A stretch of DNA of 64,000 nucleotides, from positions 304,185-368,184 of the forward strand of contig OZ242018.1 of the NCBI GenBank assembly GCA_965204855.1. The letters are read 5' to 3'. A model generated the notes under the pieces. That model did not search any database and had not been told where the DNA came from. It saw nothing but the letters and a program-made list of their open reading frames with translations. This stretch comes from Dehalococcoidia bacterium (GTDB lineage Bacteria; Chloroflexota; Dehalococcoidia; Lucifugimonadales; JADFKI01). A program made the position numbers and the translations under genes. Numbering within the stretch: position 1 is the first letter of the stretch; each line of letters opens with the position of its first letter. Of the stretch, positions 8,501-63,657 are shown piece by piece.

Positions 8501-9217
8501 TTGAAAGAGCGCCTCGTCACGGCTCCGGCAATCGCCTGCCGCGAGGGTGTTGCGGATGAATCGCCTGCTCGGATCGGTGTCCGCATTGCTGAAGGCATCG
8601 AGCAGTTCGTCGTCGGTCTCCAGGCCGAACAATCGCAGGACTGTCAGCGCGCTCAGGCTGCTTCCATTGTTTAGCCTGACGCGCAGTTGGTCGCGCTCGT
8701 TCGTCTCGAAGCCGATCCAGGAACCGCGAGCGGGAATGATGCGTCCTCTTCCCAGCCGATGCCCGGAAACAGGCTCGCGGTCGAAGCCGAACCAGACGCC
8801 GGGGGCGCGTACTATCTGGTGAATGACGACTCGCCGCACTCCATTGATGATGAAGCTACCTGAAAGATCCATCACGGGAACCCGGCACAGGAGGAGGCGC
8901 TGCTCGATTATCTCGCTGCTGTTTGTGTTCGTCAGTGTCGCTCTGACCGTCACCTGTGCGTCGTATGTCAGGCCTTCTGCGACACACTCTGAGGGGCTGC
9001 GCTCACGCGGTTCCAGCTCGGGCTGGTCGAGGCTCAGCGAGAAGCGGCCGGACGCATCGCTTATGTCGGCCATTTCGCTGAGGGACTGGGCGATGCCGCT
9101 CTCCAGAAACTGGCGGTACGAGTCCAACCGGAGCGACAGTAGTCCTGGCTGTGCCGTTGGCGCTTTCAGCCTGCCGTACCGACGTACCGGTAGGGTTGAT
9201 GTGATTTTGGGCGTCAT
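5489..9217 (-). CDS. rpoB: DNA-directed RNA polymerase beta subunit
   Basis: 1242 aa with the hallmark blocks FIINGVRRVVIHQ, NPLAELTHKRRVTSLGPGGL, IPFLEHDDANRALMGCNMQRQAVPL, GRHGNKGCVS and GEMEVWGLEAYSAAHLLQEMMTVKSDD. Confidence 0.95.
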   Translation of the reverse strand: MTPKITSTLPVRRYGRLKAPTAQPGLLSLRLDSYRQFLESGIAQSLSEMADISDASGRFSLSLDQPELEPRERSPSECVAEGLTYDAQVTVRATLTNTNSSEIIEQRLLLCRVPVMDLSGSFIINGVRRVVIHQIVRAPGVWFGFDREPVSGHRLGRGRIIPARGSWIGFETNERDQLRVRLNNGSSLSALTVLRLFGLETDDELLDAFSNADTDPSRRFIRNTLAAGDCRSRDEALFQVYAEVAPGAPPSRESAERRRERLFFSPQHYSLSAVGRHMLNRRFGTSETSLLLTCDDLVRIVGHVIKVSLGSAGADDIDHLANRRVRTAAELVQTEFETGLYEVGRAVNQRLELGRSRPKRPSDLLNTAPLLKRLDGFFNGSKLCQLVDETNPLAELTHKRRVTSLGPGGLNRQNAGVDPRDVHHTHYGKLCPIETPEGQNIGLLSTLTTAAQIDRHGLLTTPVRRVMKEVSSHDERLAGRELRQDVRVGADFLARVGSIATPELVKRLAAIPAFSVAVRPYVSGDDADVVYLTAYEEAGLTIAQCTVELDELGQFVEEQVAARRGEDWLLVPRESIDCIDLTPRQIVSASTALIPFLEHDDANRALMGCNMQRQAVPLLHPQTALVATGMEVDMARDSGHQIRAEDSGTVMSASADRIELMPDDGGGMQRYDLQSAIRSNAFTWIGQRPIVNRFQGVDAGQPIADGPATSEGELALGQRVLVSYMSWGGYNYEDAIIVSERVVREGKFRSRILKKYRLDAMDTPLGPEILTRDVPDVADWRRQLLDEEGVAPVGAYVGSGQILIGKATPKPVPVEHQDRERTPEEKLLFKVLGETSDNLRYQDGSRLLPKGQQGRVVSVKVVRRGDGSEAARGLPPSCHTRVEVEVAGTRDLRSGDKMSGRHGNKGCVSIIVPQEDMPFLPDGTPVDVILSPLGVPSRMNLGQLMEVHLGWAAHRLGFRARTPVFDSARWEQIEQCLAQAWLVEQAGGLPTERLPEDDVYKVDWDRVRNWAEAQGYDYEALFGEGAENRTYCGRVCLELWMRQQGLDSTGFSSYQELREEALRLDREENLSAPIMGKQVLRDGRTGEPFDRPVTVGYKYMLKLIHMVEDKMHARSTGTYSMITQQPLGGKSVGGGQRLGEMEVWGLEAYSAAHLLQEMMTVKSDDVGGREALLRAIMADDGSGFSKGTQIKPGVPDSFELLLSELRSLGLNPELIRDTPEIATAPLPRPEESYDDAALNAGD

Positions 9218-43954: not shown

Positions 43955-43992
43955 AGAAAAAACCCCCGCCGGCGGGTGCCTTGCGGGGGGGG
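43955..43992 (-). terminator. Intrinsic terminator containing a C9 (plus-strand G9) run
   Basis: On the minus strand: CCCCCGC...GCGGGGG stem followed by TTTTTT. The homopolymer occupies 43984-43992. Confidence 0.65.
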
Positions 43993-44013
43993 GTGATTAG
44001 AGAATGGCGATGA

Positions 44014-45078
44014 TTACCCGAGCGCCTCCATAAAGCGCGTCTTGCCGTCGGGGACAGTCGCCAGGTCCGCTATGTCCTCGTAGCCGCCGGGCAACCTGAT
44101 CGCTGACGCGTTCGCGAGAGTCGCAAGCTGTTCTTCGCCGTCTTCGATGTCCAGCCCCAGCAGCCTTCTCGTCAGGCTCTCGCCTTTCTCGTTGGCGTCG
44201 AGCGCGAGAACCACCTCTCCCGCCCGCACCCTGTTGAGCTGCTGCACCAGCCGCTCGATGTTGCCGTTGCCCGCAAGCCCCACTGATGGCAGTTCCCACT
44301 CGCGCAGGGTCAGCCAGTCGAAGACGCCCTCTGCCACTATCAGACGCTTCATTCGTCGAGGCAGGGTGCCTATGCCCAGGATGGCCTTGCTTCCGGGTAG
44401 GGCATTGAAGCGAGGCTTCACGTTCTCACGGACGGTGCGACCGGTCATCCAGACCGTACTGCCGTTCAGTGTCTCCGGAACTACTACCATGCAGGCGAAG
44501 CGTTCACGCCTCCCTCTGTCCAGCAGAAGCCCCGACCGAAGAATGCGGTCCTTACCGAAGCCCTGCTTCAGCAGGTAGCTCTTCAGTCCTTTTCCCGTGC
44601 AGTAGCCGAGCTGCAGGGCTTGCGCCGTCGCCCTGCTGATGCCGCGTGCCTTGAGGTAGTTGCGTCCGGGCAGTCCTGAATCTGCGCTCAGCAGTATGTC
44701 CCGATAGAAGGTGAGCGCTGCACGCACTACCGCGCCGTCCTGCCCGAGAGTGCGGCGGAACGTGGGCTTGGCGTAGCGAGTCCTGACTGGTGTCACAGGC
44801 TGTCGCTGTAAGGTACTTGCAGCCTCCTGAACACCCACGTCATCGAGCTTGCGGATGAAGTCGAGCGCGTCGCCCCAGGCCCCGCAGCCGAAGCAGTGAA
44901 AGCGCTGACTATCAGCGTAAACGGTGAAGCTGCCTTCGCTTTCGTCGTGGAACGGGCAGACGCCCTGGCGAACGCGTCCCGAGCCGGGAGTGAGCTTGAT
45001 GCCGCGACTCTCCACGATGTCTCCAAGATCTCTGGTCCGTGCTATCTGTCCGAGTTTCGTGAAATATGCAGTTGCCAT
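44014..45078 (-). CDS. DnaG-like DNA primase (CHC2 zinc finger plus TOPRIM)
   Basis: CPFHDESEGSFTVYADSQRFHCFGCGAWGD zinc finger. TOPRIM-like VAEGVFDWLTL ... LALDANEKGE. No helicase-binding C-domain (354 aa). Confidence 0.85.
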   Translation of the reverse strand: MATAYFTKLGQIARTRDLGDIVESRGIKLTPGSGRVRQGVCPFHDESEGSFTVYADSQRFHCFGCGAWGDALDFIRKLDDVGVQEAASTLQRQPVTPVRTRYAKPTFRRTLGQDGAVVRAALTFYRDILLSADSGLPGRNYLKARGISRATAQALQLGYCTGKGLKSYLLKQGFGKDRILRSGLLLDRGRRERFACMVVVPETLNGSTVWMTGRTVRENVKPRFNALPGSKAILGIGTLPRRMKRLIVAEGVFDWLTLREWELPSVGLAGNGNIERLVQQLNRVRAGEVVLALDANEKGESLTRRLLGLDIEDGEEQLATLANASAIRLPGGYEDIADLATVPDGKTRFMEALG

Positions 45079-48181: not shown

Positions 48182-48218
48182 CTCTTCACCTCTATACAGG
48201 AATCGGTGTCAGCGCGGT

Positions 48219-48285
48219 CAATTATGCCGCATTCGGCGTATAGTTACAATAAGTTACAGATATTTGCGGATAAAGTGACGCAATA
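48219..48285. promoter_or_regulatory. Conserved regulatory block, copy 1 (in-phase AGTTACA direct repeats)
   Basis: AGTTACA at 48242-48248 and 48252-48258, AGTGAC at 48274-48279 (spacings 10 and 22 bp). Preceded by the palindrome ATGCCGCAT. An almost identical block lies at 53383-53449. Confidence 0.55.
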
Positions 48286-48451
48286 GAAATATTTGTAGTG
48301 GTAAGATGCCGTGTGGGTTTGCCCATCACACGGGAGGTACGCACTCGTCTCTTGAAGGAACCCCGCCCGGACCGGCAGCATTGGCGCCGATGGCGGATAC
48401 CTCAGAACCAAGGTATATGACGATAAACAGCTCAGCGATAGGAATGATTCA

Positions 48452-51400
48452 ATGAGAAGGTTTACCATAAGCAGCAGTCCGTCCACAATTACGGCCCGGC
48501 TCATGACCAGAGCGGGACTTGTTCTGCTCGCGCTGTTAGCGTTCGCGGCATCGGTGGGAACGCCCGTGGCATTCGCGCAGGAAGCCACATGCTCTACGGG
48601 CACGGCGGTTCCTGACGTGGCGAACAATCCCGGACTGGTGGCGGACTGCGAGGCGCTGCTTGCGTCGAAGAGTGTACTCGACCCCGGTGGTACGCGCCTC
48701 AACTGGAGCGCGACCGTTTCGATGTCGTCCTGGCAGGGTGTCACACTGAGCGGCACACCGCTCCGCGTAACCGAGCTGTCCCTCGCCGGTAACCCCGCCG
48801 ATCCCGACAGGCAGCTGACCGGCAGCATACCCGCGAAACTGGGCGACCTCGACAGTCTGACTTTTCTGTACCTGTACGGTAATCGATTGACGGGGAGTAT
48901 CCCGGCGGAGCTGGGCAACATTGGCAGCCTGTTGAACCTGTTCTTGTACGACAACCGACTGACGGGCAGCATACCCGCGGAACTGGGCGACATCAGCGGC
49001 CTGCTGAATCTGCTTCTCCACGACAACCAGTTGACGGGCAACGTTCCCGCCGACCTGGGTGATCTCAGCAGCCTGAGGGTGCTGAACCTGAAGTGCAACG
49101 AACTGATGGGCAGCGTTCCGTCCGAGTTGAGCGGCCTCTCCGGCCTCAGGGCAAATTCACTCTCGCTCTACGGCAATCAGCTTACCGGCTCTGTGCCCTC
49201 CGGGCTTGCCGACAAGCTGGAGCCGCCGGGACTGTCCCGTTCGGGCTGCGCGCGTCCGCCACGATTCGAGGATGGCACACCCACGACCTTGACCATCGAG
49301 GCGGGCGCGCAGTCCGGCGCGAATGTGGGCGACCCCGTAACTGCCTACGACCCGGACGGAGATACGCTCGCATACAGGCTGTCGGGGGATGACGCCGCGT
49401 CATTCGCCATTGCCGCAGATGGACAGATGAAAGTCGCGGCGCAGACACTGGAGGTCGGCGACTACGAGGTGACCATCGAGGCAAGCGACGGGACGGGACG
49501 CACCGCCAGCACAGCCGTGACCATCAGCGCGACGGCGCCGCCGAGTCCGTGCTTGACTGGCGCTGCGGTCCCTGACGCGGCGAACAACCCCGGCCTGGTC
49601 AAGGACTGCGAGGCGCTGCTGGCATCGAAGGATACGCTCGACCCCAGTGGCACAAAACTCAACTGGAGCGCGAGTCTATCGATATCCTCGTGGTGGGGCG
49701 TCACCCTTGAAGGAACTCCGTCCCGTGTCACAAAATTGAACCCCGACAGCTACCAGTTGACGGGCAGCATTCCCACAGAGTTGGAAGACCTCTCTAATTT
49801 GACGTATTTGAGCCTCTGGGGCAACCAGTTGACGGGCAGCATTCCCACGGAACTGGGCAACCTCTCCAACCTCAAGCAACTGCACCTCCACATCAATAAG
49901 TTGACGGGCAGCATTCCCACAGAACTGAGTAACCTCTCCAACCTGACCGAGCTGGTCCTCCACAGCAATCAGTTGACGGGTAGCATTCCCACGGAACTGA
50001 GTAACCTCTCCAACCTGGAGTTTCTGACCCTCGGCGATAAGCTGACGGGCAACATTCCCGCGGAACTGGGCAACCTCACCAACTTGACGGAACTGCACCT
50101 CCACAGTAATGAATTGACGGGCAGCATACCCACGGAGTTGAGCAACCTCTCCAACCTGAAGGGGCTGGGCCTCGCCAGAAATCAGCTGACGGGTAGCATT
50201 CCTACGGAGTTGGGCAACCTCTCCAATCTAGAGAGTCTGCGGCTCAGTGGCAACCAATTGACGGGCAGCATTCCTACGGAGTTGGGCAACCTCTCCAACC
50301 TGCAGATACTGATCTTCAGCGACAACCAATTGACGGGCAGCATTCCTACGGAGTTGGGCAACCTCACTAACTTGTGGGCACTGAGCTTCAGCGACAACCA
50401 ATTGACGGACAGCATACCCACGGAGTTGGGCAACCTCGCCAACCTGCAGCATTTGTGGATCAGCGACAACCAATTGACGGGCAGCATCCCTACGGAACTG
50501 GGCAACCTCACCAATCTGTTAGAGTTGCATCTCGCCAATAATCAGTTGACGGGCAGCATTCCTACGGAACTCGGGAATTTATCCAATCTGGGGACTCTGC
50601 ATCTTGAAGGTAACCAATTGACGGGCGCTATACCCGCGGAACTGGGCAACCTCCGGAATGTGATTTCCATATATCTACAATGCAACGAACTTACGGGCAG
50701 TGTCCCTACCGAGCTAGGAAGTCTAAACAACATAGAGGTAAATTATCTAATCCTCTACGGCAACCAACTCACGGGTTCCGTCCCGTCCGGACTTACCGAT
50801 AAATTGCGGTCCCCAGGCTTGTCGCGTTCAGGCTGTGCGCGTCCCCCACGCTTTCCGGAGGGTACGCCGATGAAGATTGTGCTCACTTCCAGCGCACAGG
50901 CGGGTGTGAATGTAGGCGACCCAGTAACAGCTTACGACCCGGATGGCGACACGCTCACTTACACTCTGTCCGGTCCCGATGCCGCATCATTCGCCGTCGC
51001 CGCGAATGGGCAGCTCAGCATCGGCGCTTCAGCTCTTAGCGGAGGTGACTACGCGGTGACGGTAACCGCTGGCGACGGCACGTTCTTCGATAACGAAGAG
51101 GACGAGAGAGTGGAGCGAACCGCGAGTATCGATGTGACGATCACCGTGGCCGCACCGCCCGAGCAACTCGGCACGCCCGATGTGTCCGCCGCAAGCACGA
51201 CCAGCCTGAATGTCAGCTGGACCGCTCCGGACAGCGGCTCCGCCATAACCGACTACGACCTGCGCTATCGCGTGAGCGGCAGCGACGGCGAGTTCACCGA
51301 CTTCGAACACGAGGGTACGACCACATCCGCAACCATCGCGGGATTGGCGCAGAACACCGAGTACGAGGTGCAGGTGCGCGCGGTCAACGCTTCGGGGACG

Positions 51401-53077
51401 GGCGAGTGGTCGCTGTCCGGTATCGGCAGCACGAACGCCCCCAACCATGCGCCGAGCTTCCCGCCGGACATCGTCAGTTCCGACGGCTACGCGCGCCGCA
51501 GCATGATCGAGAGCGTGGGCGCGACTGTCTCGGTCGCGGCGGACCTGGGAGCTCCTATCGCGGCGACGGACCAAGACGGCGACGCCCTGACTTACAGCCT
51601 TGTCCTCGATGAGGGCGATGCGGGCCTGTTCACGATAGACCCAAGCAGCGGCCAGATTCGCACGACGGCAAGCATCTACGACTATGAAGCCCGCAGCGGG
51701 TATCTCGTGCAGGTAGAAGTGAGCGACGGCAAGGACGCAGAGGGCATATCCGACGACTCGCCGGACGCCTCGGTCGATGTGCTCATCGAGATACTGGATG
51801 TCAGCGAACCCCCGGTCGGGCGACTCTCACTGACCACGGGACTGGTTGGCGCCAACCGGCTGAGCATTTCGTGGAACGAGCCCGACATGGCTGGGCGTCC
51901 TCCGGTCACCGGCTACGAGGCGCAATACCGCACTGCAGGTAGGCACTTCGCCGACGCCACCCCCACGGTCAACGGCCGGAGCGTGGACATCAGAGGCCTG
52001 AGTCCGTATACCTTGTACAAGATCCGGGCGCGCGCGCTCAACGAGGACGGAGCGGGCGAATGGGCGCTGCGGTCGATACAGACCGTCAGATCGAACGCAC
52101 CTCCCAGCCTTCCCACCGGGCTGATAACGCGCGATATAGACGAGAACGCCGCACCGGGAGCCGCCGTCGGCGCGCCTATAGCGGCGACGGATGACGACAA
52201 GGACGCGCTGGCGTACAGCTTGCAAGAGACCGGGGACGAGGAAGTGGACGGCGCATTCACGATAGACGGTAGCGGACTTCTGCGCGTGAGCGGGAGTCTG
52301 GACTATGAATCGCGTGTCGCGTATCTGCTGGTGGTGCAAGTCAGTGACGGGAAGAACGATGACGGCAATCCTGACGCTTCGGTGGACGACACGGTTACGG
52401 TGCTCGTTCGCCTGGGCGATGTCTTTGAACTGCCCCCTGCGCCTGCCGCGCCAACGGTGACTCCCGCCAGCGCCACCGCGCTGACGGTCGAGTGGACTGT
52501 GCCCGGTGCGGCCGGATCGCCGGAGATAGACAGATACATACTGCTGTACAAAGCCGCAAGCGCCGCTTCGTATGAGGACGTGGACATCTCCGGCGCCGAG
52601 AGCAGCGCCACGCTGCTGGGGCTGAGACCCGACACCCTGTACGATGTGCAGGTTCATGCCTACATTGACGAAGTCGGATTGGGCCCGCCGTCTCCTGCGG
52701 GTCAGGGCAGGACGAATGCCCTCAACTCCGCGCCAAGCTTCCCGAGCGCCGTGGCGGTGCGTCGAATCGATGAGAGCATCGGCGCAGCGGTATCGACGGT
52801 AGAGAAGGTGGGCGCGCCGGTGGAGGCGCAGGACGGAGACGGGGACGCTCTGACATACGGCTTGCAAGGAGCCGGCAGCGGGCACGCGGCGTTCTTCACC
52901 ATCGATCCCGCAACCGGGCAGCTAAGCACTGTCCGAAGAAACTACGACTACGAGACCGTGAGAGCTTACCTGCTCGTGGTGCAAGTGAGCGACGGCAAGG
53001 ACGCCTGGGGGATGTCCTCCGATGCGGTGGACGCGCGCGCCACGGTCATAATTCAAGTGCGCGACTTGGACGAATAA
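48452..53077 (+). CDS. Secreted giant protein: two plant-type LRR blocks, cadherin-like and FN3 domains (1541 aa)
   Basis: Signal peptide ...LALLAFAASVGTPVAFA|QE. LRRNT-like caps (DCEALLASK..LDP....LNWS.....W.GVTL) are followed by 24-residue LTGSIPTELGNLSNL repeats. Cadherin-like modules (DPDGDTLAYRLSG...) and FN3 (PDVSAASTTSLNVSWTAP). Confidence 0.9.
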   Translation: MRRFTISSSPSTITARLMTRAGLVLLALLAFAASVGTPVAFAQEATCSTGTAVPDVANNPGLVADCEALLASKSVLDPGGTRLNWSATVSMSSWQGVTLSGTPLRVTELSLAGNPADPDRQLTGSIPAKLGDLDSLTFLYLYGNRLTGSIPAELGNIGSLLNLFLYDNRLTGSIPAELGDISGLLNLLLHDNQLTGNVPADLGDLSSLRVLNLKCNELMGSVPSELSGLSGLRANSLSLYGNQLTGSVPSGLADKLEPPGLSRSGCARPPRFEDGTPTTLTIEAGAQSGANVGDPVTAYDPDGDTLAYRLSGDDAASFAIAADGQMKVAAQTLEVGDYEVTIEASDGTGRTASTAVTISATAPPSPCLTGAAVPDAANNPGLVKDCEALLASKDTLDPSGTKLNWSASLSISSWWGVTLEGTPSRVTKLNPDSYQLTGSIPTELEDLSNLTYLSLWGNQLTGSIPTELGNLSNLKQLHLHINKLTGSIPTELSNLSNLTELVLHSNQLTGSIPTELSNLSNLEFLTLGDKLTGNIPAELGNLTNLTELHLHSNELTGSIPTELSNLSNLKGLGLARNQLTGSIPTELGNLSNLESLRLSGNQLTGSIPTELGNLSNLQILIFSDNQLTGSIPTELGNLTNLWALSFSDNQLTDSIPTELGNLANLQHLWISDNQLTGSIPTELGNLTNLLELHLANNQLTGSIPTELGNLSNLGTLHLEGNQLTGAIPAELGNLRNVISIYLQCNELTGSVPTELGSLNNIEVNYLILYGNQLTGSVPSGLTDKLRSPGLSRSGCARPPRFPEGTPMKIVLTSSAQAGVNVGDPVTAYDPDGDTLTYTLSGPDAASFAVAANGQLSIGASALSGGDYAVTVTAGDGTFFDNEEDERVERTASIDVTITVAAPPEQLGTPDVSAASTTSLNVSWTAPDSGSAITDYDLRYRVSGSDGEFTDFEHEGTTTSATIAGLAQNTEYEVQVRAVNASGTGEWSLSGIGSTNAPNHAPSFPPDIVSSDGYARRSMIESVGATVSVAADLGAPIAATDQDGDALTYSLVLDEGDAGLFTIDPSSGQIRTTASIYDYEARSGYLVQVEVSDGKDAEGISDDSPDASVDVLIEILDVSEPPVGRLSLTTGLVGANRLSISWNEPDMAGRPPVTGYEAQYRTAGRHFADATPTVNGRSVDIRGLSPYTLYKIRARALNEDGAGEWALRSIQTVRSNAPPSLPTGLITRDIDENAAPGAAVGAPIAATDDDKDALAYSLQETGDEEVDGAFTIDGSGLLRVSGSLDYESRVAYLLVVQVSDGKNDDGNPDASVDDTVTVLVRLGDVFELPPAPAAPTVTPASATALTVEWTVPGAAGSPEIDRYILLYKAASAASYEDVDISGAESSATLLGLRPDTLYDVQVHAYIDEVGLGPPSPAGQGRTNALNSAPSFPSAVAVRRIDESIGAAVSTVEKVGAPVEAQDGDGDALTYGLQGAGSGHAAFFTIDPATGQLSTVRRNYDYETVRAYLLVVQVSDGKDAWGMSSDAVDARATVIIQVRDLDE
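49757..50762 (+). repeat. Tandem 72-bp coding repeat (14 units, one of 69 bp) encoding 24-aa LRRs
   Basis: The (T/C)TGACGGG... anchor recurs at 49757, 49829, 49901, 49973, 50042, 50114, 50186, 50258, 50330, 50402, 50474, 50546, 50618 and 50690. Confidence 0.9.
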
Positions 53078-53309: not shown

Positions 53310-53382
53310 GCGGCAGTACAATGTAGCCTGCAGGATGCAACCATCCTACAGGCTCTAACTCGTTTGAGTGCTGGGTTCGGGC

Positions 53383-53449
53383 CAATTATGCTGCATTCGG
53401 CAGATAGTTACAATAAGTTACAGATAATTGCTGCTAAAGTGACATAATG
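53383..53449. promoter_or_regulatory. Conserved regulatory block, copy 2
   Basis: AGTTACA at 53406-53412 and 53416-53422, AGTGAC at 53438-53443. Same spacing as copy 1, preceded by the palindrome ATGCTGCAT. Confidence 0.55.
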
Positions 53450-53580
53450 GTAATGCCTATGGTGCTATGATGAAACGTGGGTCCCCCATCAGCGGGAGAT
53501 ATCTATTTGTCTCTCAAACGGACCCGGACCGGCCGCATTGATGACGCGCCGCCGCACCCGAATCAGACCGAGGATAAATT

Positions 53581-56500
53581 GTGATGAACAGTAGCAGCCA
53601 TGGCGTAGCACAATCACAACTCCTGAAAATCGGGGGGGGGGGGGTGGACTCCAAGAGAAGGCTCCAGATTCCCCTGGCCGCCGTACTCTTCGCTCTGGCG
53701 GCGTTTCTTGCCTTGTGGCAACCTGGCGCAGAAGCTGCCCCGGCGCAGCAGGCCACCGTACCGGGCGTGCCCACCAACCTCATCCTCACCTCAGACGTTG
53801 ATTCGATCACCCTCTCCTGGACGGCGCCCACTTCCGACGGTGGCTCTCCTATCACCTATTATCACATCACGTACCAGAGGGGCGATACAACAAGGGACTA
53901 TTGGACCGACACTGACGGGCCGCCCGGCAGCGACCCCCTCGCTACCACGCTCACCATTTCAGACCTCGATGTTGGCAGGTACGAAGTAACCGTAACCGCC
54001 GGAAATACAAACGGTGAAGGCGACCCCGTCACCGGCACCATCGCCACCTCCACTTACGTCACGCCCGTCATCTCCATAGTGTCCGACAGCTTAGATGAGG
54101 GTGCGACTACATCCATTGTCGTCAGAATCGATCCCGCGCCGGCCGGGGCCGTGAATTTCGATTATCAGGCCTCCAGGGAATCCGGCAACACTGCCGCAGT
54201 CGGGGACACTTTCGCTATTCAAACAGGCTTGGACATCTCCAATGAAAAGTATACAGACGGGTTCTTTGACGACTTCGAGGGAAACCAGGAGTACTCCCTT
54301 TACATAGAGATCGTACAGGACGCCATAGATGAGGACGACGAGACCTTCACGTTAACCCTGTCCAACCTGACCGGCAGCGACGCCACGTTCGAGGGCGGCA
54401 CGGGTACATTGACCAAGGTAATCACCCTCATCGACGACGACAGGGCGGCCAGCGCGCCGCAAAAGGTTCATGCTTACGAGGATGACTCCGGCCTCTGGGT
54501 GGCTTGGGACGAACCGGCCGACCTGGGGGAAGAGGATGGCGCGACGGGTTCGATCCAGTACTACGAATACCGCACCTCAACGACGAGCGGCTCCCTGGCT
54601 GTAGCGTCGTGGGATTCGACGTTCGACACCGGCACAAGCCTCCTCATCGCCAACCCGACCACCGGCAACCATTACTTTCAGGTGCGCGCAATCACCCATT
54701 ACAACGGGGCGATCGCCGGCGCAATCTCCAATGTCGCAGCCGCCACAGCCGACACCGACGTCGTGTTCGCAGTAACTACCCCCGGATTCATCGTTACCGA
54801 GGGCGAGTCCGCAGATCTCCGTGTGCGTCTGGCGACGCAACCCACGGCCAATGTCACCTTGTCCATATCTGAAAGCTCCGCAGATATCAGCTTGGACAAG
54901 TCTTCACTGACTTTCACCCCCACGGACTTCGACTCGGACGGTTCCAACGGTTTTGACGATTACCAGGCTATCAAGGTGACTGCCCGCGAGGACGACATGG
55001 ATGACGCCGACGAAGCGGCGATTATCAATTTCACAGTAACCAGTACCGACCCCAACTACGGCGGGAAGACCGTCGTGGCAAGCGTGATCATCGAGGACGA
55101 CGAGTCCACGCTGGTCCCGCCGGAGAACTTCCAGGCAACGCCGCGCGACAAGCGTATCGATGTCTCCTGGGACGCCCAGACCGGCGCCGCGTCCTACACC
55201 ATCACCTGGAGCTGCGGCAGCGCTTCAGCGCAAACCCATACCACCGCCGATGGGGATGCTACGACCTACACCATTCCCGGCCTGACCAACGGCACCGAGT
55301 GCTCCGTCTCCATGCGAGCCAACGGCACTGAAGTGGACGGCGGCACCTTCGACAGCGCCTCGACTGCCAGCATGACCGCCACACCGCTCCCACTCGTCGT
55401 AGTTACCCCAACTGTCCTGTCCTTGAACGAGAACCTTTCGCACACGGACAACACCGGCGAGTACACCATCGTCCTGACGCAAGAGCCGACGAACACCGTA
55501 TTCATACTGGTAAATAACCCCGATTCCTCCAAGTTGGACATCAGCGCCGGATCATCCGGCGAGCTGACCTTCACGCCCAGCGACTACGACCAGCCGCAAA
55601 CTGTCTCCGTTTTTGCGCTACAGGACGACGATCCGGTGGACGACACCCTCACCGTGACGAACACCGTATCCCACAGCTCTGACCCCGCATACAGCGGCCT
55701 CGTCATTGACAGCGTTACAGTAACGGTGACCGACAAAGACCATGCCGCGATTGATACATCGCCGTCGTCGCTGGACGTGACCGAGGGGAACCAGGATACC
55801 TTCAATGTCTTTTTGTCGTCCAAGCCGGCGGGCAACATCGTCGTCAACGCAGTTAGCGCCGATACTGACACGGTTACCGTAAGCCCGGATAAGCACACCA
55901 TCGCGCCGGACGATTACTTCAGTGGAGTCGATTTCACCGTAACAGCGCAGCAGGACTCCGACGGGTCGGACGCAACCGTTCAAATTACGTTCAGCATAAA
56001 CACCGGCGAGTCTGTGGATAAGAACTACCCCGCTCCCAACATCATCCGGGCGGTCAACGTATTCGACGACGACACGCGGGGCGTCACCCTTGCCTACGTC
56101 ACTTATCCAGACGTGAATGAGAACGGGGGCACGGCTACCTACACCCTCGTGCTCGATACTAAGCCGACGGGTCCTGTGACCATCAGGCCGCAAAGCTCTG
56201 ACGTCAGCAGTGCTACGGTGATGCCGTCATCGCTGACCTTCGATGCCTCAAATTGGGACGACCCTCAGACCGTTGCCGTCACCGGCGTCAACGACAACAT
56301 CGACAACAGCAACGACTTCCGCAGCGCAATCATCACCCACAGTGTCAGCGGCGGCGATTACGGCGAAGTGGACACATCAGCGTCGGATCTGTTCATTAGC
56401 GTGAACGACGACGACACCCGGGGAGTTACGGTTACGGCCACTGATCCGTTGGAAGTGCCGGAGAGCGGCTCGGCCCAATATACCGTCGTGCTGAACACAC

Positions 56501-59500
56501 AACCCACCGGTACGGTTACGGTTACGCCGGAAGTTGACGGCAACAGCGCCGACCCCGGCTCGGTCACCGTGTCCGGCCCGCTGACCTTCGATGCCTCGAA
56601 TTGGAGCGACCCGCAGACCGTTAACGTTACCGGCGTCAACGACAATATCGACAACGCCGGCGAGATGCGTGAAGCCACCGTCACCCACACGGTGAGCGGC
56701 GCCGACTATGCGTCTGAGTCGGCCGATAGCGTGAATCTGCACGTTACTGACGACGACGATGACCCCACGGTTGGCCTGGTTTTGAACCCGGACAACATCA
56801 GCGAATCCTCACCGGGCAACGTCGCCACCGTAACGGCCACGCTGAGCCATCCCTCCGACGCCGCAACCACCATCACCGTGACGACAATGCCGGCAGCGGG
56901 TGATTTCGCCCTCAGCTCCACCCCGACGTTGACCATCGCCGCCGGCGCAACCACCAGCACAGGCACGGTTACCATCATGGCCCGAGACGACGCCGACAGC
57001 GTTGCGGATGTCGTCAGCGTTGGGGCTACCGTGGTCAATACTGAGGGATTTGTGGCGCCCGCTGCCAGAACACTCACCATCACCGACGATGATTCGGCCG
57101 GCGTAACGGTCAGCGCCGCCGACCCGTTCGCGGTTCCTGAGGGCATGGGGGCGGACTACACCGTCCAGTTGGTCAGCCAACCCACCGGCAACGTGGTCAT
57201 TAACATCGGCGTAACCGGCAGCAGCGACGTTTCGACCACCCGGAACCAACTCTTGTTTGACGCGTCGAATTGGAGCGACCCGCAGACCGTAACCGTAAAC
57301 GCCTCCGATGACCAGGATGCGGTAGCGGACACGGCAACCATCACCCACACCATCGACCAAGGGGCAACCGTCAGCGAGTACGACGGCGTCAGTGTCCAGA
57401 ACATCAGCGTCCAGGTGACGGAGAACGATTTCCGGGGCATCGTCATTGACACCGACAGCGTGATGAGTGGCGTCCAAACCACACCCATCACCATCGCCGA
57501 GGCCGACGGCGAAGGCGCGGACTACTCCATCCGGTTGGAGAGCCAACCCACCGCGACGGTAACCATCAGCGTCCGAAGCTCCGACACCAGCATTGCCCGA
57601 GTGACACCGGGCAGCCTCAGGTTCACGCCTACCAATTGGAGCGACCGCCAGGAATTCACCGTCCACCCCGTGCCGAACGACATCGACGACCCGGGCGACA
57701 GGCGCACCGCCACTTTCAGCCACACCGTGTCCGGCGGCGACTACGCCGGCGATACGGCCGCCTCAGTAACCGTGGACGTAACCGACGACGACACCCGGGG
57801 CATATCGGTGGACACCGACGGTGTACTGAGTGGTGTCCAATCCACGCCCATCACCGTCGTCGAGAACGCAACGGCCATCTACACCGTGGTTCTCACCAGC
57901 CAGCCCACCGGGACCGTAACGGTCACCCCCAACAGCCTCAGTCCAGACGTTGCCACAGTCAGCCCCGCGTCCCTGCGTTTCACGTCAGGAAACTGGAGCC
58001 AGGCTAGGACCGTCACTGTAAGGCCCGTCAACGACGACAAAGACAACGCCGGCGAGAAACGCACGGCAACCCTTAGGAACGATGTAGCAGCTCCTGGCTC
58101 TGACTATGTGTCGGTCTCCGCCTCCAGCGTGACAGTGGACGTTACCGACGATGAGGATGACCCCACCGTTTCCCTGGCGGTTGCCCCGTCCGCCATCGTT
58201 GAGAACGGAGAGGCCGCTCTGATAACTGCCACACAGAGCATCGTCTCGGACGCTGATACCATCGTTACCGTTACTGCAACGCCGGATGTCGAGAATTTCA
58301 ACGTGGATTTCGAACTTCTCGGAACAACCCTGACTATTCCCGCCGGACAGACCGGCAGCGTGGGTCTCGTGTCCATCCGGGCGCGCCGGGACGCCAACAC
58401 CGCCGACTACACGGTGGCAATTTCCGGCAATGCGGACAACATAGAAGGCGTCAATGATCCGGCTGACGTACAGGTTACCGTCGGTGAGGAAGCCGAGCCC
58501 GGCGCCACGCTGTTCCCCGCCGACCTCCTCACAGTCGAAGAGGGTTCTACCTCCATCTACACGCTGGTCCTGAACCGGGAACCCCTGGGCGACGTGGTAA
58601 TCCAGGCGCGCGTCACCGGCAACAGCGACGTCACGATTGATACCGACGAGATTATGAACGGCAACCAGGACACGCTGACCTTCACGCTGGAGAACTACCG
58701 CGACCCCCAGATCGTAACCGTCCGGGCCGCCTCGGATGATGACGCAGCGAATGATACGGCCTCCGTGACCCACAGCGTCGTCGCCTCCCAAAGCTCCAAC
58801 GAGTACGACAGCGTTGCCATCGCCGCTTTGAACGTGAGGATAAACGACGACGAGACCGCTGGGGTAACCGTCACTGAAAGCAATTTGCGCATCGAAGAGG
58901 GCCGCAGCGATACATACACCGTCCGGCTGAACACGCCACCCGTGGGCAATGTCCGCATCGCCGTCTTCAGCAACCATGATTACATAACCGTCAGCCCCAG
59001 TGCGTTCACACTCACCCGGAGCAACTGGCAGCGAGGGCAGACCGTAACCGTCCGCTCCCGAAACGACGACGAGGCCCTGCCGGTGTCGGCCAGGCTTACC
59101 CATACCATCGACGCCGATGCTACCACTGCCGACGAGTACGACGGCAAATACGTCGCACGCGTGGACGTGGACGTCATCGACGATGAGTCGCCGGTGGACT
59201 ACGACCGCGAAAACAATGGCCGCATCGACATCACCACGAGGGAGCAGCTGAACGCCATCCGCTGGGACCTGGACGGCGACGGAGAGGCGGACGACGCGAA
59301 CAACGACAGCCGCTACGCTGCCGCCTTCCCGCGCATCATGGAGAACATGTGCGACGAGGACTTCACCGAAACTGCAATTGGCGGCGACCCCGGCAACTGC
59401 ACGGGATACGAGCTGGCCAACGACATCACCCTGTCGGGCAGCTGGACGCCCATCGGTGGCAACCAGGATGACGAGGACTTCTCCGATCCCGCGGAGTACG

Positions 59501-62500
59501 ACGCCGAGTTTGACGGCAACGGCTACACCATCAGCAACCTGAGCATCAGCCGGGGCGACCGGATCAACGTGGGGCTGTTCGGTGCGGTCGGCGACGGAGC
59601 CGAAATCCGCGAAGTTGGCGTGGTGAAAGCCAACGTGCGCGGCTTTGCCCATGTGGGCGCGCTGGCGGGCCGCAACAACGGCACGATTTTGGGCGCATGG
59701 TCAAACGGCCATGTGTCAGGCAACGCGTTCGCGGGCGGCCTGGTGGGCTGGAACATGAAAGGCAGCACCGTCGAGCGGAGCTTCTCCAAGGCCGAAGTGA
59801 CCGGCTTCAACTCCTCTGACCAGGGCGGTCCCCTCTGGTCCACGCGGATCGCCGGATTGGTGGGTGGAAACTACGGCACGATAGCGAACACCTACGCTAC
59901 GGGCAGCGTGCGGGGCAGGGGCCATGTCGCCGGCCTGACCGGGGAAAACAGCCACAGCAAAGGCATCAGTAACGGCGTCAGCAACGACATCAGCAACAGC
60001 TACTCCATAGGCGCGGTGTCCACCGAAGAGGACTGGCCCTTCGTGGGCGGCCTGGTCGGCTGGCAGACGGCTACGGTGACCAGCAGCTACTGGGACACCG
60101 AGGCCTCGGGTCAAAGCGAAGGTTACAGCCAGGGCGAACCTTCCGGCGCTGTCGGCAAGACCAAAACCGAGCTGCAAGCGCCCACCGGCCCTGACGCCGA
60201 CACTGACGGCGACGGCAACCCCGACACCTACGTCGGCTGGAGCGCAAGCGTCTGGAACTTCAGGGATGACGACAAGTACCCCTGCCTGATAGATGTGGGA
60301 GATTGCCCAGCGCCAACCGCGACGCAGCCGGAGCCGCCGGACTCCACGCTACAGCCGGTCCTGGCAATGCGGGCAAGCGTAACGGTTGACGCCATCGACC
60401 CGGTGGAGCTGGCGGAAGGCGGCTCGGCCACCTATGAGATGTATCTGGACGGCCAGCCCACCGACAACGTGACCATCACGATGAGCAGCGACAACGGCGA
60501 CATCACGCTGGAGCCGTCGTTCCTGACCTTCACGCGTGACAACTGGCACACGGCGCAGTCCGTAACCGTCCGCGTGGCACAAGACGACGACGCGGCGAAC
60601 GACACCGCGACCGTCAGACACGCGGTCGGCGGTGCCCACGAGTACGCCGGCATCACGGTTGACACCGTTGCCGTTGCCGTATCCGACGACGACACTGCCA
60701 GCATAACGGTGCAGCCGACCAGCCTCACCCTGCCGGAGGGCTTCACCGGCTCCTACTCGATATCGCTGTCCCACCGGCCCGTCGGCGAGGTGCGAATCTT
60801 CATGCTCAGCGACAACCCCGACGTTGTGCCGTACCCGGACCCGATCATCTTCACCCCGGACAACTGGCAGACGGAACAACTGGTAGGGGTCCCGGCGGCA
60901 CACGACGACGACGTGGCGGACGATGAAGCCTTCATCACCCACGGAATCCTAGCCGCCACCGGGTCCGGGTACACCAGCGCGACGGTGGCATCCGTAGTTG
61001 TGTCCATAACCGACGACGACGAACCCGCCGCTCCGGGCGTCACGGTGTCCGCCGCCGACCCGGTAACGGTTGCGGAGGGCGGTTCAGCCACCTACCAGGT
61101 GTCGCTGGACGCGCCGCCCACAGGCGATGTAACCATCACCGCGAGCAGCGACAACGGCGACGTTACGGCGCAGCCGGCCAGCCTCACATTCAACCCGGAC
61201 AACTGGCAGAACGCGCAGACCGTAACCGTCAGCGCGGCCCATGACAACGATGCGGTTGACGATACCGCTGCCGTCAGCCACGCCGTCAGCGGCGGCAACT
61301 ACGACGGGGTGGCGGCGGCATCCGTAACCGTCAGCATCGACGATGACGACAGTGCCGGCGTTACGGTGGAGCCGTTGACCCTCATGGTTATCGAGGGCGG
61401 CGACAGTGCGTCCTACACGGTGGTTCTGGATACCGAACCCAGCGCCAATGTGGTAATCGACGTGAGCAGCGACAGCGCCGACGTAAGCACGCAGCCGACC
61501 GAGTTGACCTTCACCACCGGCGACTGGCAGACCGCGCAGACCGTGACCGTCAGCGTCGGACAGGATGACGACAGCGACCCGGACAGGGCAACCGTCAGCC
61601 ACGAGGTCAGCGGCGCAGCCGAGTACGACGGTATCGACGCAGCCGGTGTAACCGTACTCATAAGCGACGACGATCCGATCACCCTGCCCGCCACCGATGC
61701 AGGGAGTGTAACGGTGGAGCCGTTGACCCTCGACATAACCGAGGGCGGCGACGGCGCGTCCTACACGGTGTCGCTGGACGTCGAACCCAGCGCCAATGTG
61801 GTCATAGACGTAAGCAGCGACAACGCCGACGTAAGCACGCAGCCGGCCAGCCTCACCTTCACCACCGGAGACTGGCAGACCGCGCAGACCGTGACCGTAA
61901 GCGCCGGAAAGGACGACGACAGCGACGACGAGACGGCAACCGTCAGTCACCAGGTCAGCGGCGGCAACTACGACGGCGTAACGGCTGCATCGGTAGCCGT
62001 CAGCGTAACCGACGACGACCAGGAAACGGAGGAACCCGTCGCCGAAACCGACCCCAACCGGGCGGCACTGGAGGCGTTCTACAATGCCACGGGCGGCGCA
62101 AGCTGGACCAACAACGCCAACTGGCTGAGCAATAGGCCGCTGTCCGAGTGGCACGGCGTAACCACCAACGGGCATGGCGAGGTAACCACCATAGTCCTCG
62201 ACGGGAACAACCTCACCGGCAGCCTGCCCGCCGAGCTAGGCAACCTGGGTAGCCTCACACGTCTCGCGCTGAACCGCAACGGCCTCAGCGGCGCCATCCC
62301 GTCGCAACTGGGCAGCCTGCCCAACCTGAGCATCATCGGCCTGGCACGCAACCAGTTGAGTGGGTCGCTACCTGCGAGCCTGGGCAACCTGCCGCTCACG
62401 CGGCTGTCGCTCCACGACAACACAGAGTTGAGCGGACCGCTGCCGTCCGGCTTCACCAGCATGGGCAGCCTGCAACGCCTAGCCATCGCCAACACCGGCA

Positions 62501-62595
62501 TCTGCATCCCCGCAGGCGACGCCTTCACCAACTGGCTGGCGACGGTGCCCGACAAGCCGGGGATCGACGGACTGACCACCTGCGCCTCACCATAA
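53581..62595 (+). CDS. Giant secreted protein (3004 aa): FN3, Calx-beta-like and related beta-sandwich repeats, GLUG-motif region, C-terminal plant-type LRR
   Basis: FN3 (VPGVPTNLILTSDVDSITLSWTAP). A Calx-beta-like first module. At least a dozen modules carry ...TF(T/D)xxNWxxxQTVTV...DD.D signatures. The GLUG-like stretch includes FAGGLVGWN, IAGLVGGNYG and FVGGLVGWQ. The C-terminus has LTGSLPAELGNLGSL LRRs. The true start may be GTG at 53644. Confidence 0.9.
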   Translation: MMNSSSHGVAQSQLLKIGGGGVDSKRRLQIPLAAVLFALAAFLALWQPGAEAAPAQQATVPGVPTNLILTSDVDSITLSWTAPTSDGGSPITYYHITYQRGDTTRDYWTDTDGPPGSDPLATTLTISDLDVGRYEVTVTAGNTNGEGDPVTGTIATSTYVTPVISIVSDSLDEGATTSIVVRIDPAPAGAVNFDYQASRESGNTAAVGDTFAIQTGLDISNEKYTDGFFDDFEGNQEYSLYIEIVQDAIDEDDETFTLTLSNLTGSDATFEGGTGTLTKVITLIDDDRAASAPQKVHAYEDDSGLWVAWDEPADLGEEDGATGSIQYYEYRTSTTSGSLAVASWDSTFDTGTSLLIANPTTGNHYFQVRAITHYNGAIAGAISNVAAATADTDVVFAVTTPGFIVTEGESADLRVRLATQPTANVTLSISESSADISLDKSSLTFTPTDFDSDGSNGFDDYQAIKVTAREDDMDDADEAAIINFTVTSTDPNYGGKTVVASVIIEDDESTLVPPENFQATPRDKRIDVSWDAQTGAASYTITWSCGSASAQTHTTADGDATTYTIPGLTNGTECSVSMRANGTEVDGGTFDSASTASMTATPLPLVVVTPTVLSLNENLSHTDNTGEYTIVLTQEPTNTVFILVNNPDSSKLDISAGSSGELTFTPSDYDQPQTVSVFALQDDDPVDDTLTVTNTVSHSSDPAYSGLVIDSVTVTVTDKDHAAIDTSPSSLDVTEGNQDTFNVFLSSKPAGNIVVNAVSADTDTVTVSPDKHTIAPDDYFSGVDFTVTAQQDSDGSDATVQITFSINTGESVDKNYPAPNIIRAVNVFDDDTRGVTLAYVTYPDVNENGGTATYTLVLDTKPTGPVTIRPQSSDVSSATVMPSSLTFDASNWDDPQTVAVTGVNDNIDNSNDFRSAIITHSVSGGDYGEVDTSASDLFISVNDDDTRGVTVTATDPLEVPESGSAQYTVVLNTQPTGTVTVTPEVDGNSADPGSVTVSGPLTFDASNWSDPQTVNVTGVNDNIDNAGEMREATVTHTVSGADYASESADSVNLHVTDDDDDPTVGLVLNPDNISESSPGNVATVTATLSHPSDAATTITVTTMPAAGDFALSSTPTLTIAAGATTSTGTVTIMARDDADSVADVVSVGATVVNTEGFVAPAARTLTITDDDSAGVTVSAADPFAVPEGMGADYTVQLVSQPTGNVVINIGVTGSSDVSTTRNQLLFDASNWSDPQTVTVNASDDQDAVADTATITHTIDQGATVSEYDGVSVQNISVQVTENDFRGIVIDTDSVMSGVQTTPITIAEADGEGADYSIRLESQPTATVTISVRSSDTSIARVTPGSLRFTPTNWSDRQEFTVHPVPNDIDDPGDRRTATFSHTVSGGDYAGDTAASVTVDVTDDDTRGISVDTDGVLSGVQSTPITVVENATAIYTVVLTSQPTGTVTVTPNSLSPDVATVSPASLRFTSGNWSQARTVTVRPVNDDKDNAGEKRTATLRNDVAAPGSDYVSVSASSVTVDVTDDEDDPTVSLAVAPSAIVENGEAALITATQSIVSDADTIVTVTATPDVENFNVDFELLGTTLTIPAGQTGSVGLVSIRARRDANTADYTVAISGNADNIEGVNDPADVQVTVGEEAEPGATLFPADLLTVEEGSTSIYTLVLNREPLGDVVIQARVTGNSDVTIDTDEIMNGNQDTLTFTLENYRDPQIVTVRAASDDDAANDTASVTHSVVASQSSNEYDSVAIAALNVRINDDETAGVTVTESNLRIEEGRSDTYTVRLNTPPVGNVRIAVFSNHDYITVSPSAFTLTRSNWQRGQTVTVRSRNDDEALPVSARLTHTIDADATTADEYDGKYVARVDVDVIDDESPVDYDRENNGRIDITTREQLNAIRWDLDGDGEADDANNDSRYAAAFPRIMENMCDEDFTETAIGGDPGNCTGYELANDITLSGSWTPIGGNQDDEDFSDPAEYDAEFDGNGYTISNLSISRGDRINVGLFGAVGDGAEIREVGVVKANVRGFAHVGALAGRNNGTILGAWSNGHVSGNAFAGGLVGWNMKGSTVERSFSKAEVTGFNSSDQGGPLWSTRIAGLVGGNYGTIANTYATGSVRGRGHVAGLTGENSHSKGISNGVSNDISNSYSIGAVSTEEDWPFVGGLVGWQTATVTSSYWDTEASGQSEGYSQGEPSGAVGKTKTELQAPTGPDADTDGDGNPDTYVGWSASVWNFRDDDKYPCLIDVGDCPAPTATQPEPPDSTLQPVLAMRASVTVDAIDPVELAEGGSATYEMYLDGQPTDNVTITMSSDNGDITLEPSFLTFTRDNWHTAQSVTVRVAQDDDAANDTATVRHAVGGAHEYAGITVDTVAVAVSDDDTASITVQPTSLTLPEGFTGSYSISLSHRPVGEVRIFMLSDNPDVVPYPDPIIFTPDNWQTEQLVGVPAAHDDDVADDEAFITHGILAATGSGYTSATVASVVVSITDDDEPAAPGVTVSAADPVTVAEGGSATYQVSLDAPPTGDVTITASSDNGDVTAQPASLTFNPDNWQNAQTVTVSAAHDNDAVDDTAAVSHAVSGGNYDGVAAASVTVSIDDDDSAGVTVEPLTLMVIEGGDSASYTVVLDTEPSANVVIDVSSDSADVSTQPTELTFTTGDWQTAQTVTVSVGQDDDSDPDRATVSHEVSGAAEYDGIDAAGVTVLISDDDPITLPATDAGSVTVEPLTLDITEGGDGASYTVSLDVEPSANVVIDVSSDNADVSTQPASLTFTTGDWQTAQTVTVSAGKDDDSDDETATVSHQVSGGNYDGVTAASVAVSVTDDDQETEEPVAETDPNRAALEAFYNATGGASWTNNANWLSNRPLSEWHGVTTNGHGEVTTIVLDGNNLTGSLPAELGNLGSLTRLALNRNGLSGAIPSQLGSLPNLSIIGLARNQLSGSLPASLGNLPLTRLSLHDNTELSGPLPSGFTSMGSLQRLAIANTGICIPAGDAFTNWLATVPDKPGIDGLTTCASP
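53632..53644 (+). repeat. G13 homopolymer at the 5' end of the 3004-aa gene
   Basis: Thirteen consecutive G counted directly. Read as GGGG plus the first base of GTG in the track ORF. GTG at 53644 begins a canonical signal peptide (VDSKRRLQIPLAAVLFALAAFLALWQPGAEA). Confidence 0.95.
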
Positions 62596-62823
62596 GCGAG
62601 GCAGGACAACAGAGCCGGTAGGGAACCACCCCGCCGGCTCCAAATCAGAGGATGAACCTTCCTGCCGCGCCACCGCGCCACCTGCCAGTGACGCTCGTGG
62701 TAGGAAGACCCGCGCACGGCAGGGTCGTGCTGCGCGACGCTATCGCGGCTTACCGGCCACAGCGCTTCCAAGTGACACGGAGAGCCTGTGTCGTTGCTGC
62801 GACCACTTATCGAGAAGGAGATT

Positions 62824-63657
62824 ATGAACACTCAAAATGTAGTGAACCTGTTTCTGGAGAGCCGCCGATCCAAGCAGCTCTCGAAAGTCACCATAGACAC
62901 CTACGGCTGGGCGCTCGCCAAGATGGCCGAGATGTTCCCGGGAGAACTGCCGGAGAATACATCCGACATTCAGCGACTGCTCATCGAAAACTCCGACCTG
63001 TCGGCTTCGTCGCTGCTGACTATCTGGAACAGGCTTCGTATCTTCTGGTCGTGGGCGGAGAAAGAAGGCTTCTGCTCCAATGTCATGGAAAGTGTTCCCG
63101 CCCCGGTGATGAGGCGCAAGCTGCCTCGCGTGCTCAGATCTGGCGAGATCCGACAGCTCCTGGGCTCTGTGGATGTCGAACGCGATTACGCCATACTTGC
63201 AGTGCTGCTGGACACGGGGATGCGAATCGGGGAGCTCGCGTCGATGACGCGAGCGTGCGTCAGCTCGGAGGGAGTGCTCATATCGGGCAAGACTGGGGAC
63301 AGGACCGTGCCCATGTCGCCGAGTGTAGTTGAGCTGGTGAGCAGGCAGGGAGACGAGCACGGCCTGTGGACCGGGACCCAGGGCCGGCTGACGGACTGGG
63401 GCCTACAGCAGATAGTGAGGCGAAACATGCGAAAGGCGGGTTTCGAGCCACCCAAGATAGGACCGCACACATTGCGGCACACATTCGGGATGCATTACAT
63501 ACTGAACGGCGGGGATGTGTTCTCGCTGCAGCGGATAATGGGACACAAGAGGTTGACGACGACGATGATATACGTGGACATGTCCACAGAGCTTGTGGCA
63601 CAGCAGCACCGCAAGTATTCGCCGATGGCGGGTATCGCGCACGCTCGCGAGTGGTAG
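62824..63657 (+). CDS. Tyrosine recombinase/integrase (XerC/D-like)
   Basis: DTGMRIGEL (catalytic Arg), HTLRHTF (HxxR) and GHKRLTTTMIYV (His...Tyr). ATG at 62824 with GAAGGAG 4 nt upstream. Confidence 0.88.
   Translation: MNTQNVVNLFLESRRSKQLSKVTIDTYGWALAKMAEMFPGELPENTSDIQRLLIENSDLSASSLLTIWNRLRIFWSWAEKEGFCSNVMESVPAPVMRRKLPRVLRSGEIRQLLGSVDVERDYAILAVLLDTGMRIGELASMTRACVSSEGVLISGKTGDRTVPMSPSVVELVSRQGDEHGLWTGTQGRLTDWGLQQIVRRNMRKAGFEPPKIGPHTLRHTFGMHYILNGGDVFSLQRIMGHKRLTTTMIYVDMSTELVAQQHRKYSPMAGIAHAREW

Follow-up and report, generated by a model that had tools for sequence, protein, structure and literature searches.

A 13-nucleotide G tract at the 5' end of a giant surface-protein gene from a Dehalococcoidia bacterium as a candidate phase-variation switch within a conserved kinase-linked cassette

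A run of 13 consecutive G (G13) at the 5' end of a gene for a predicted surface protein of 3004 amino acids (aa) is a candidate slipped-strand switch in a Dehalococcoidia bacterium of the phylum Chloroflexota. The gene lies in a 64,000-nucleotide (nt) stretch of contig OZ242018.1 (GenBank assembly GCA_965204855.1, positions 304,185 to 368,184 of the forward strand), hereafter the window, and window positions are used throughout (Table 1). We consider that G13 may be a hypermutable simple-sequence repeat controlling production of this giant FN3/Calx-like/LRR protein, and put the probability of that reading at roughly 45%. Judged from the sequence, this tract, at an adhesin-like gene's 5' end, is a credible member of the contingency type, and it lies within a conserved cassette in which such tracts recur. 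Homopolymer-driven phase variation is textbook knowledge for a few host-restricted pathogens, and giant secreted repeat or surface proteins are a classic gene class for contingency loci. A literature search returned no report of homopolymer phase variation for Chloroflexota or sponge symbionts. Mechanisms of the proposed kind are already known; what is new is the lineage and the cassette setting.

G13, whose surroundings read tcGGGGGGGGGGGGGtggac, is the longest homopolymer of the 64-kb window (60.8% GC), in which no run of A, C or T exceeds 6 nt and G9 at 43985-43993 is the one further G run longer than 6. Under a first-order Markov model, 2.8e-4 G runs of at least 13 would be expected per window; the run is real and far beyond chance, and it exceeds the length of about 8 nt that is taken as hypermutable for G:C homopolymers. 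Two possible upstream starts, GTG 53581 and ATG 53584, are both in frame with GTG 53644, the codon that begins on the last G of the tract, and 17 codons lead from GTG 53581 to G13. The original prediction had described the tract, its frames and the signal peptide behind it, and all of these statements proved correct when coordinates and frames were rechecked. The same is true of its remark that a paralogous 1541-aa gene has no such tract: the leader of that gene (48201-48451) contains no run of 6 or more.

The 3004-aa product is predicted, from its signal peptide and domain content, to be a giant secreted repeat protein forming a surface structure, with an FN3 domain near the N-terminus and the LRR at the C-terminus. 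Read from GTG 53644, it begins VDSKRRLQIPLAAVLFALAAFLALWQPGAEA/AP (the stroke marks the predicted cleavage); the n-region carries positive charge, the core is hydrophobic and the site is of the AxA type. The protein is rare in the collections covered. Exact look-up of the sequence from either start (53584 and 53644) found no record, and a related-locus search of genome, viral and metagenome collections with a single N-terminal protein gave no match; the same kind of search with a two-sequence alignment returned only metagenome relatives of about 33% identity, none of them with the cassette, and zero hits in GTDB genomes. Among 1.84 billion cluster representatives there was a single close relative, P0001; no remaining match exceeded 46% identity, and the next that was collinear, P0156, reached 35%. 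One distant homologue (L009, MKWU01004564.1; about 33% identity) carries a G10 at its positions 141-150, within a surface-protein coding region whose reading frame changes close by, which is either a further phase-variable candidate or an assembly error. Directly downstream of the giant gene lies an open reading frame (ORF) for a tyrosine recombinase of the phage-integrase family (62788-63657, plus strand).

Homologous leaders carry related tracts. P0001 is encoded on L001, a 12-kb contig labelled 1x and the only close homologue, at 57-65% aa identity depending on the method (about 60-65%). L001 has G9 at the homologous site, followed by T and then GTG AGT TCC TTG CGT AGG (MSSLRRPLLV...), and the remaining intergenic DNA is barely alignable with that of the window. 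As assembled, it has an in-frame TGA 18 nt before the main GTG, and its ATG 4431 opens a 22-codon ORF that crosses the tract and ends at GTGA over the main start; with G10 or G13 the two frames would be fused. Its giant gene contains at least seven frame changes in 7.6 kb, so the homopolymer lengths of this contig cannot be trusted.

Eight further loci, L017 to L024, were fetched through homologues of a neighbouring hybrid kinase alone (79-94% kinase identity, 168 kb in total). L019 (86% kinase identity) encodes a 2078-aa FN3/Glug/LRR protein behind a leader that is homologous to that of the window and fused in frame: it reads GGAGGtagatgaccATG AAT ATT AGC GGC CAT TAC ATA GCG CAA TCT, translated MNISGHYIAQSRPFKLGRRIPMKRSLIALAAF, where the window has MNSSSHGVAQSQLLKIGGGGVDSKRRLQIPLAAV. 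At the position of G13 it has GGGCGGCG, which looks like an interrupted, locked tract. In L018, whose kinase fragment is 94% identical over 74% of the query, the gene behind the leader is gone and GAAAATC with G6 is kept; its ...TTTGAAAATCGGGGGG is the same site as CTGAAAATC plus G13 in the window. The L020 leader reads ATG AAC AGT AAC GGC CAT GGC ATA GTG CAA T and continues into C11 (L020 5967-5977, gene strand). This C11 comes after the conserved MNSNGHGIVQS codons, and the actual start of the GLUG-type gene is apparently about 550 nt beyond. L024 has C14 (9711-9724, gene strand) within the 5' untranslated region (UTR), 121 nt past the cassette core; a lipoprotein-like gene starts about 115 nt further on.

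The C11 and C14 tracts are the only homopolymers of 8 or more in the 168 kb, and both fall within leader windows of about 300 nt, together about 2% of its length (P about 4e-4). They lie 108-121 nt past the cassette core, and all tracts lie 108-134 nt past the CGGGAG core. The candidate switch is thereby strengthened relative to the original prediction, which had proposed comparison with relatives: the position is conserved and the length differs, with G13 in the window, G9 in L001, G6 in L018 and an interrupted run in L019, and independent long C tracts stand in the leaders of L020 and L024. The comparison draws on few loci, namely a single noisy close homologue and the eight anchored on the kinase, and the lengths come from distant relatives, among them a 1x contig (L001) and a remnant (L018).

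The setting of these tracts is a promoter/leader cassette of about 200 nt that adjoins the hybrid kinase gene in every kinase-fetched relative and is present twice in the window, as copy A before the 1541-aa paralogue and copy B before the giant gene. From blastn against the relatives and an alignment of 11 copies, its consensus is GGTCAATTATGCCGCATTCGGCGGATAGTTACAATAAGTTACAG...AAAGTGAC...GCCCATCnGCGGGAGGTA...GTCTCTCGAACGGACCC...CCGGACCGGCCGCATTGATGA...CTCAGACCGGAGGTAGATGACGATGAACAG, or in short form GGTCAATTATGCCGCATTCGGCGGATAGTTACAATAAGTTACAG ... CGGGAGGTA ... GGAGGTAGATGACGATGAAC. Copy B holds a GTTACA-N5-GTTACA direct repeat, AAAGTGAC and the CCCATCAGCGGGAG core, which ends at 53498. The hybrid kinase-regulator is a candidate transcriptional regulator of the cassette, and the direct repeat is a plausible site for its OmpR-type output domain. 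What stands behind the cassette differs: giant FN3/Glug/LRR proteins in the window, L019 and L023, lipoprotein-like genes in L022 and L024, and AhpC in L017 and L018. In copy A, a short upstream ORF (uORF) runs from ATG 48417 to TGA 48455 and overlaps the main start ATG 48452 at ATGA; this end and the GTGA end of the L001 leader ORF (4431-4499) both show translational-coupling geometry.

A promoter scan of the cassette found no plus-strand sigma70 promoter; the sole sigma70-like match is on the minus strand (53413..53385), and its equivalent in copy A would serve the kinase gene. A hand-picked promoter, GTGACA...TATGAT, was dropped for its spacer of 21 nt. Rfam searches of the leader and the whole window gave no matches, and a tRNA scan of the window found no tRNA gene. 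We do not claim a riboswitch: applied to nine 5' UTRs, RNAalifold gave no more than a weak hairpin of 8 bp (GGGAGRT/GTCTCTC), nearly free of covariation. At about 3200-3560 (minus strand), downstream of a partial copy of the cassette, L021 contains two copies of a palindrome-containing repeat of about 75 nt, CCCCTC.CCCT.AGGGGGAGGGTTAGG...GACTCTGTCG.GGCTCTCGACAAAGTCGGAGGTG.GGGTGA, that resembles repetitive extragenic palindromes or miniature inverted-repeat transposable elements (REP/MITE-like). Named homologues of the kinase (71-72% identity) are mostly from Chloroflexota or Dehalococcoidia, one being labelled Acidimicrobiia, and exact look-up of the window's own kinase found no record. With the named homologues of RpoB, these few proteins from metagenome-assembled genomes point to a probable Chloroflexota, and domain content and study labels hint at a possible sponge origin.

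In the proposed mechanism, transcription would start in the conserved cassette, probably in response to the adjacent kinase-regulator. Ribosomes would load at the Shine-Dalgarno (SD) site GAGGA (53570-74) and, as its conservation suggests, initiate at ATG 53584, translate 16 leader codons and then meet the G tract. From this ATG the frame is open with G10, G13 or G16, stops after 71-72 codons with G11 or G14, and stops after 134-135 codons with G12 or G15. At the open lengths, translation would continue into the signal peptide and the 9-kb gene; a replication slip of +/-1 would lead to one of the early stops, GTG 53644 being crossed out of frame, and the slipped lengths would probably yield little or no adhesin. 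The OFF state may be leaky, giving a dimmer instead of a clean switch, because the G run is also a strong SD-like site for GTG 53644. This combined model, ON at in-frame lengths and low or leaky otherwise, is in our view the most realistic reading.

Much depends on the start codon. The original prediction had offered two readings, with translation starting either upstream of the tract or at GTG 53644. The upstream ATG 53584 is probably the main start in the window, which would place the tract inside the coding sequence. It is favoured because the SD, the ATG and the first 11 leader codons are shared with L019 and L020, and because the leader is fused in frame to the main ORF in the window and L019. 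The SD plus ATG motif GGAGGTAGATGACGATGAAC is conserved across the cassettes, with homologous GGAGG or AAGG sites in L019, L020 and L018, and the 11 codons common to the window, L019 and L020 differ synonymously at Asn2 (AAC/AAT) and Ser11 (TCA/TCC/TCT). At -5.9 kcal/mol, the duplex of GAGGA with a generic anti-SD sequence is as strong as the median duplex of 19 window genes, most of which have AGGAG-type sites. The start at GTG 53644 also keeps support, from the -10.7 kcal/mol of poly-G with the same anti-SD, stronger than for any of the 19 genes, and from the stop codon in L001. What does not hold up well is the suggestion that tract length would tune initiation there: a change of +/-1 is hardly expected to do so, as the SD slides within the homopolymer and its computed strength for GTG 53644 is flat from G10 to G17. 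Products from either start lose their N-terminus upon signal-peptide cleavage, and N-terminal proteomics, which the original prediction had proposed, would not discriminate between them.

Several observations weigh against a frameshift switch read from ATG 53584. Third positions are not enriched among the leader substitutions that separate the window from L019 (5/4/6 by hand count), a sign of weak coding constraint. In L001 the leader peptide is not preserved and the leader, as assembled, stops at the GTGA overlapping the main start; the leader ATG is lost in the paralogue copy (ATA) and in L022 (TTG) with the motif retained. The short leader ORF of the paralogue copy and L001 resembles a coupled uORF, not an N-terminal extension, and GTG 53644, which follows 12 G, could plausibly act as an independent start whose frame is unaffected by tract length. 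Frameshifting cannot serve all family members, because the C14 of L024 sits in the 5' UTR, about 115 nt before the start codon. Finally, the count of 13 comes from a probable long-read consensus and could be off by one.

Taken together, some of these points would fit a different arrangement, in which GTG 53644 is the real start and the G run is a ribosome-binding region or 5' UTR, possibly with a coupled translated leader ORF, so that its length modulates initiation gradually, either directly or via a C/U-rich partner RNA. The protein homology with L001 starts exactly at this codon, the in-frame TGA 18 nt upstream puts the L001 tract outside the main ORF, the poly-G pairing beats all 19 window genes, and the ATGA and GTGA overlaps of the leader ORFs are a classic coupling geometry. 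We nevertheless think it unlikely: the window has a normal SD and ATG upstream, fused in frame and retained in L019, L020 and L018, and, with SD strength and usable spacing nearly unchanged by +/-1 from G10 to G17, the predicted effect is weak, so that length-dependent control from GTG 53644 would need a partner. Leader control of this kind has a precedent in the Helicobacter pylori tlpB leader, whose G-repeat is read by the small RNA (sRNA) RepG (PMC8295292), and would suit the UTR position of the L024 C14. In both the window and L001 the tract can pair with C/U-rich stretches immediately upstream of it, but folding over 121 nt is no better than for shuffled sequences (z = 0.34 and -0.53), and neither a partner sRNA for the G-repeat nor any Rfam family was identified in the window, the rest of the genome lying outside this search.

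A rather improbable explanation is that the tract has no regulatory role and is a by-product of a recombination or deletion junction, or of an expansion favoured locally, where a constant promoter cassette meets exchangeable cargo. The window and L018 are homologous exactly up to the tract, and the window and L020 up to the start of the L020 C11; the cassette drives differing cargo across the relatives (AhpC, lipoprotein-like genes and various giant proteins), and the tracts are G or C on the sense strand and in coding-like or UTR position. However, homology between the window and L001 continues on both sides of the tract, which is internal to a conserved unit at 57-65% aa identity, and a long G:C run is unstable and would decay unselected, as apparently happened in L019 and L018. 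Moreover, we know of no bacterial process that leaves G:C tails of 9-14 nt at junctions. That the run or its length is an artefact of sequencing, assembly or polishing is very improbable. Homopolymer length is the commonest long-read error, L001 has many indels, and the window contig is probably a long-read assembly, as implied by the 3.26-Mb contig on which the window's own kinase copy sits; but the tract stands inside a contig that is otherwise intact, with open frames of 9 kb and 4.6 kb, the assembled length gives an open frame, and four independent assemblies have homologous tracts. One of the four, L020, is labelled METAG-scaffold, which we take to mean a short-read assembly; if the label is so read, the tracts did not arise from long-read error. 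With homologous tracts in independent assemblies, this contig among them, the presence of a long tract at the site is not in doubt, and its exact length is less sure.

Poly-G:C contingency loci occur in Campylobacter jejuni, Haemophilus and Helicobacter, and poly-C tracts in Bordetella fim promoters. As in those loci, long G:C tracts stand here at the 5' ends or promoters of surface genes, several members carry them, lengths vary between relatives as they do between strains, and there are interrupted, 'locked' alleles. Those hosts are small, host-restricted Proteobacteria or Campylobacterota with measured switching, whereas the host of the window is uncultured and moderately GC-rich, and all tracts described here lie behind one shared promoter/leader cassette. 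The closest precedent for a frameshift switch is the homo-G tract in the signal-peptide coding region of Neisseria gonorrhoeae pilC1/pilC2, which switches expression ON and OFF by frameshifting (PMC5354566). Both systems have a poly-G run of comparable length within a few dozen codons of the start, at the signal-peptide region of an adhesion-related surface-protein gene with a paralogue in the same genome, and a +/-1 change shifts the frame, in the window if translation starts at ATG 53584. In contrast to pilC, the window belongs to Chloroflexota, its tract lies in an N-terminal leader before the n-region and not inside the signal peptide, an in-frame GTG with an SD-like G run could leak, and switching is a candidate read from the DNA. 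The variable G-repeat in the mRNA leader of H. pylori tlpB-hp0102 (6-16 G), near the ribosome-binding site, grades translation by its length via RepG instead of turning it ON or OFF (PMC8295292). It resembles the window in having a homopolymeric G-repeat near such a site, and bears on the case in which GTG 53644 is the start, as well as on the L024 tract in the UTR. It differs in that tlpB needs a C/U-rich sRNA loop, none of which was found for the window, and in that the window tract abuts the start codon and is probably translated.

Table 1 Features of the window around the G13 tract
Feature	Position	Strand	Description
G13 homopolymer, candidate slipped-strand switch	53632..53644	+	Encodes GGGG and the first base of GTG 53644
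3004-aa surface-protein ORF	53581..62595	+	FN3 domain, about 20 Calx-beta-like repeats, GLUG-like region, C-terminal LRR
Signal peptide (V/M)DSKRRLQIPLAAVLFALAAFLALWQPGAEA	53644..53736	+	GTG 53644 is a possible internal start; L001 tblastn homology begins exactly here
Shine-Dalgarno-like GAGGA	53570..53574	+	6 nt before GTG 53581, 9 nt before ATG 53584
Leader codons 1-16 (MNSSSHGVAQSQLLKI)	53584..53631	+	Runs from the conserved ATG up to G13; compare L019 MNISGHYIAQS.., L020 MNSNGHGIVQS..
Cassette copy B, before the giant gene	53365-53643	+	Putative promoter/operator and 5' UTR at 53365..53569; blastn, 11-copy alignment
Cassette copy A, before the 1541-aa paralogue	48201..48451	+	Leader ATG mutated to ATA; no homopolymer
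1541-aa paralogous surface protein	48452..53077	+	LRR, FN3, cadherin, Big_9
Hybrid histidine kinase-response regulator, 801 aa	45776..48181	-	GAF-PAS-HisKA-HATPase-REC-OmpR-type output; divergent from cassette/paralogue

Elsewhere in the window, the G9 at 43985-43993, its second-longest homopolymer, is intergenic between two minus-strand genes and lies in or next to a terminator-like hairpin; the CCCGCCGGCGGG hairpin and T-run beside it read as a terminator for the minus-strand primase-like gene at 44014-45078. From about 10000 to 45100 the window holds a mobile-element-like block with its own dnaN, an NAD-ligase, a DUF6094 methylase-helicase (1381 aa) and a PD-(D/E)XK nuclease, as well as ArdC, two single-stranded DNA-binding protein (SSB) genes and a short primase. 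An RpoB-like gene (5489-9217, minus strand) lacks an adjacent rpoC, its neighbours being a pentapeptide-repeat gene and a DnaA/IstB-like AAA+ gene; in L017, only about 8 kb separate the rpoB-like gene from the kinase. The RpoB-like protein is 76-88% identical to a small group of sequences and about 46% identical to named RpoB, all from Chloroflexota, SAR202 or Dehalococcoidia, and the gene may represent a divergent lineage or a second copy.

A wider and speculative reading, which we consider quite unlikely as a whole, is that one kinase-linked cassette would serve as an expression platform for interchangeable surface-protein genes, with the G:C homopolymers about 110-135 nt past its core acting both as stochastic switches and as fragile sites for exchange or deletion of cargo. 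Phase variation would then be coupled with cassette turnover in an uncultured, possibly animal-associated bacterium. The cassette together with a G:C run could serve as a marker for mining long-read metagenomes for ON/OFF ratios without cultivation. If the switch is real, uncultured Chloroflexota with eukaryote-like adhesion domains (FN3, cadherin and LRR) would hedge their surface display stochastically, on top of two-component regulation, which would bear on their dealings with hosts, grazers and phages.

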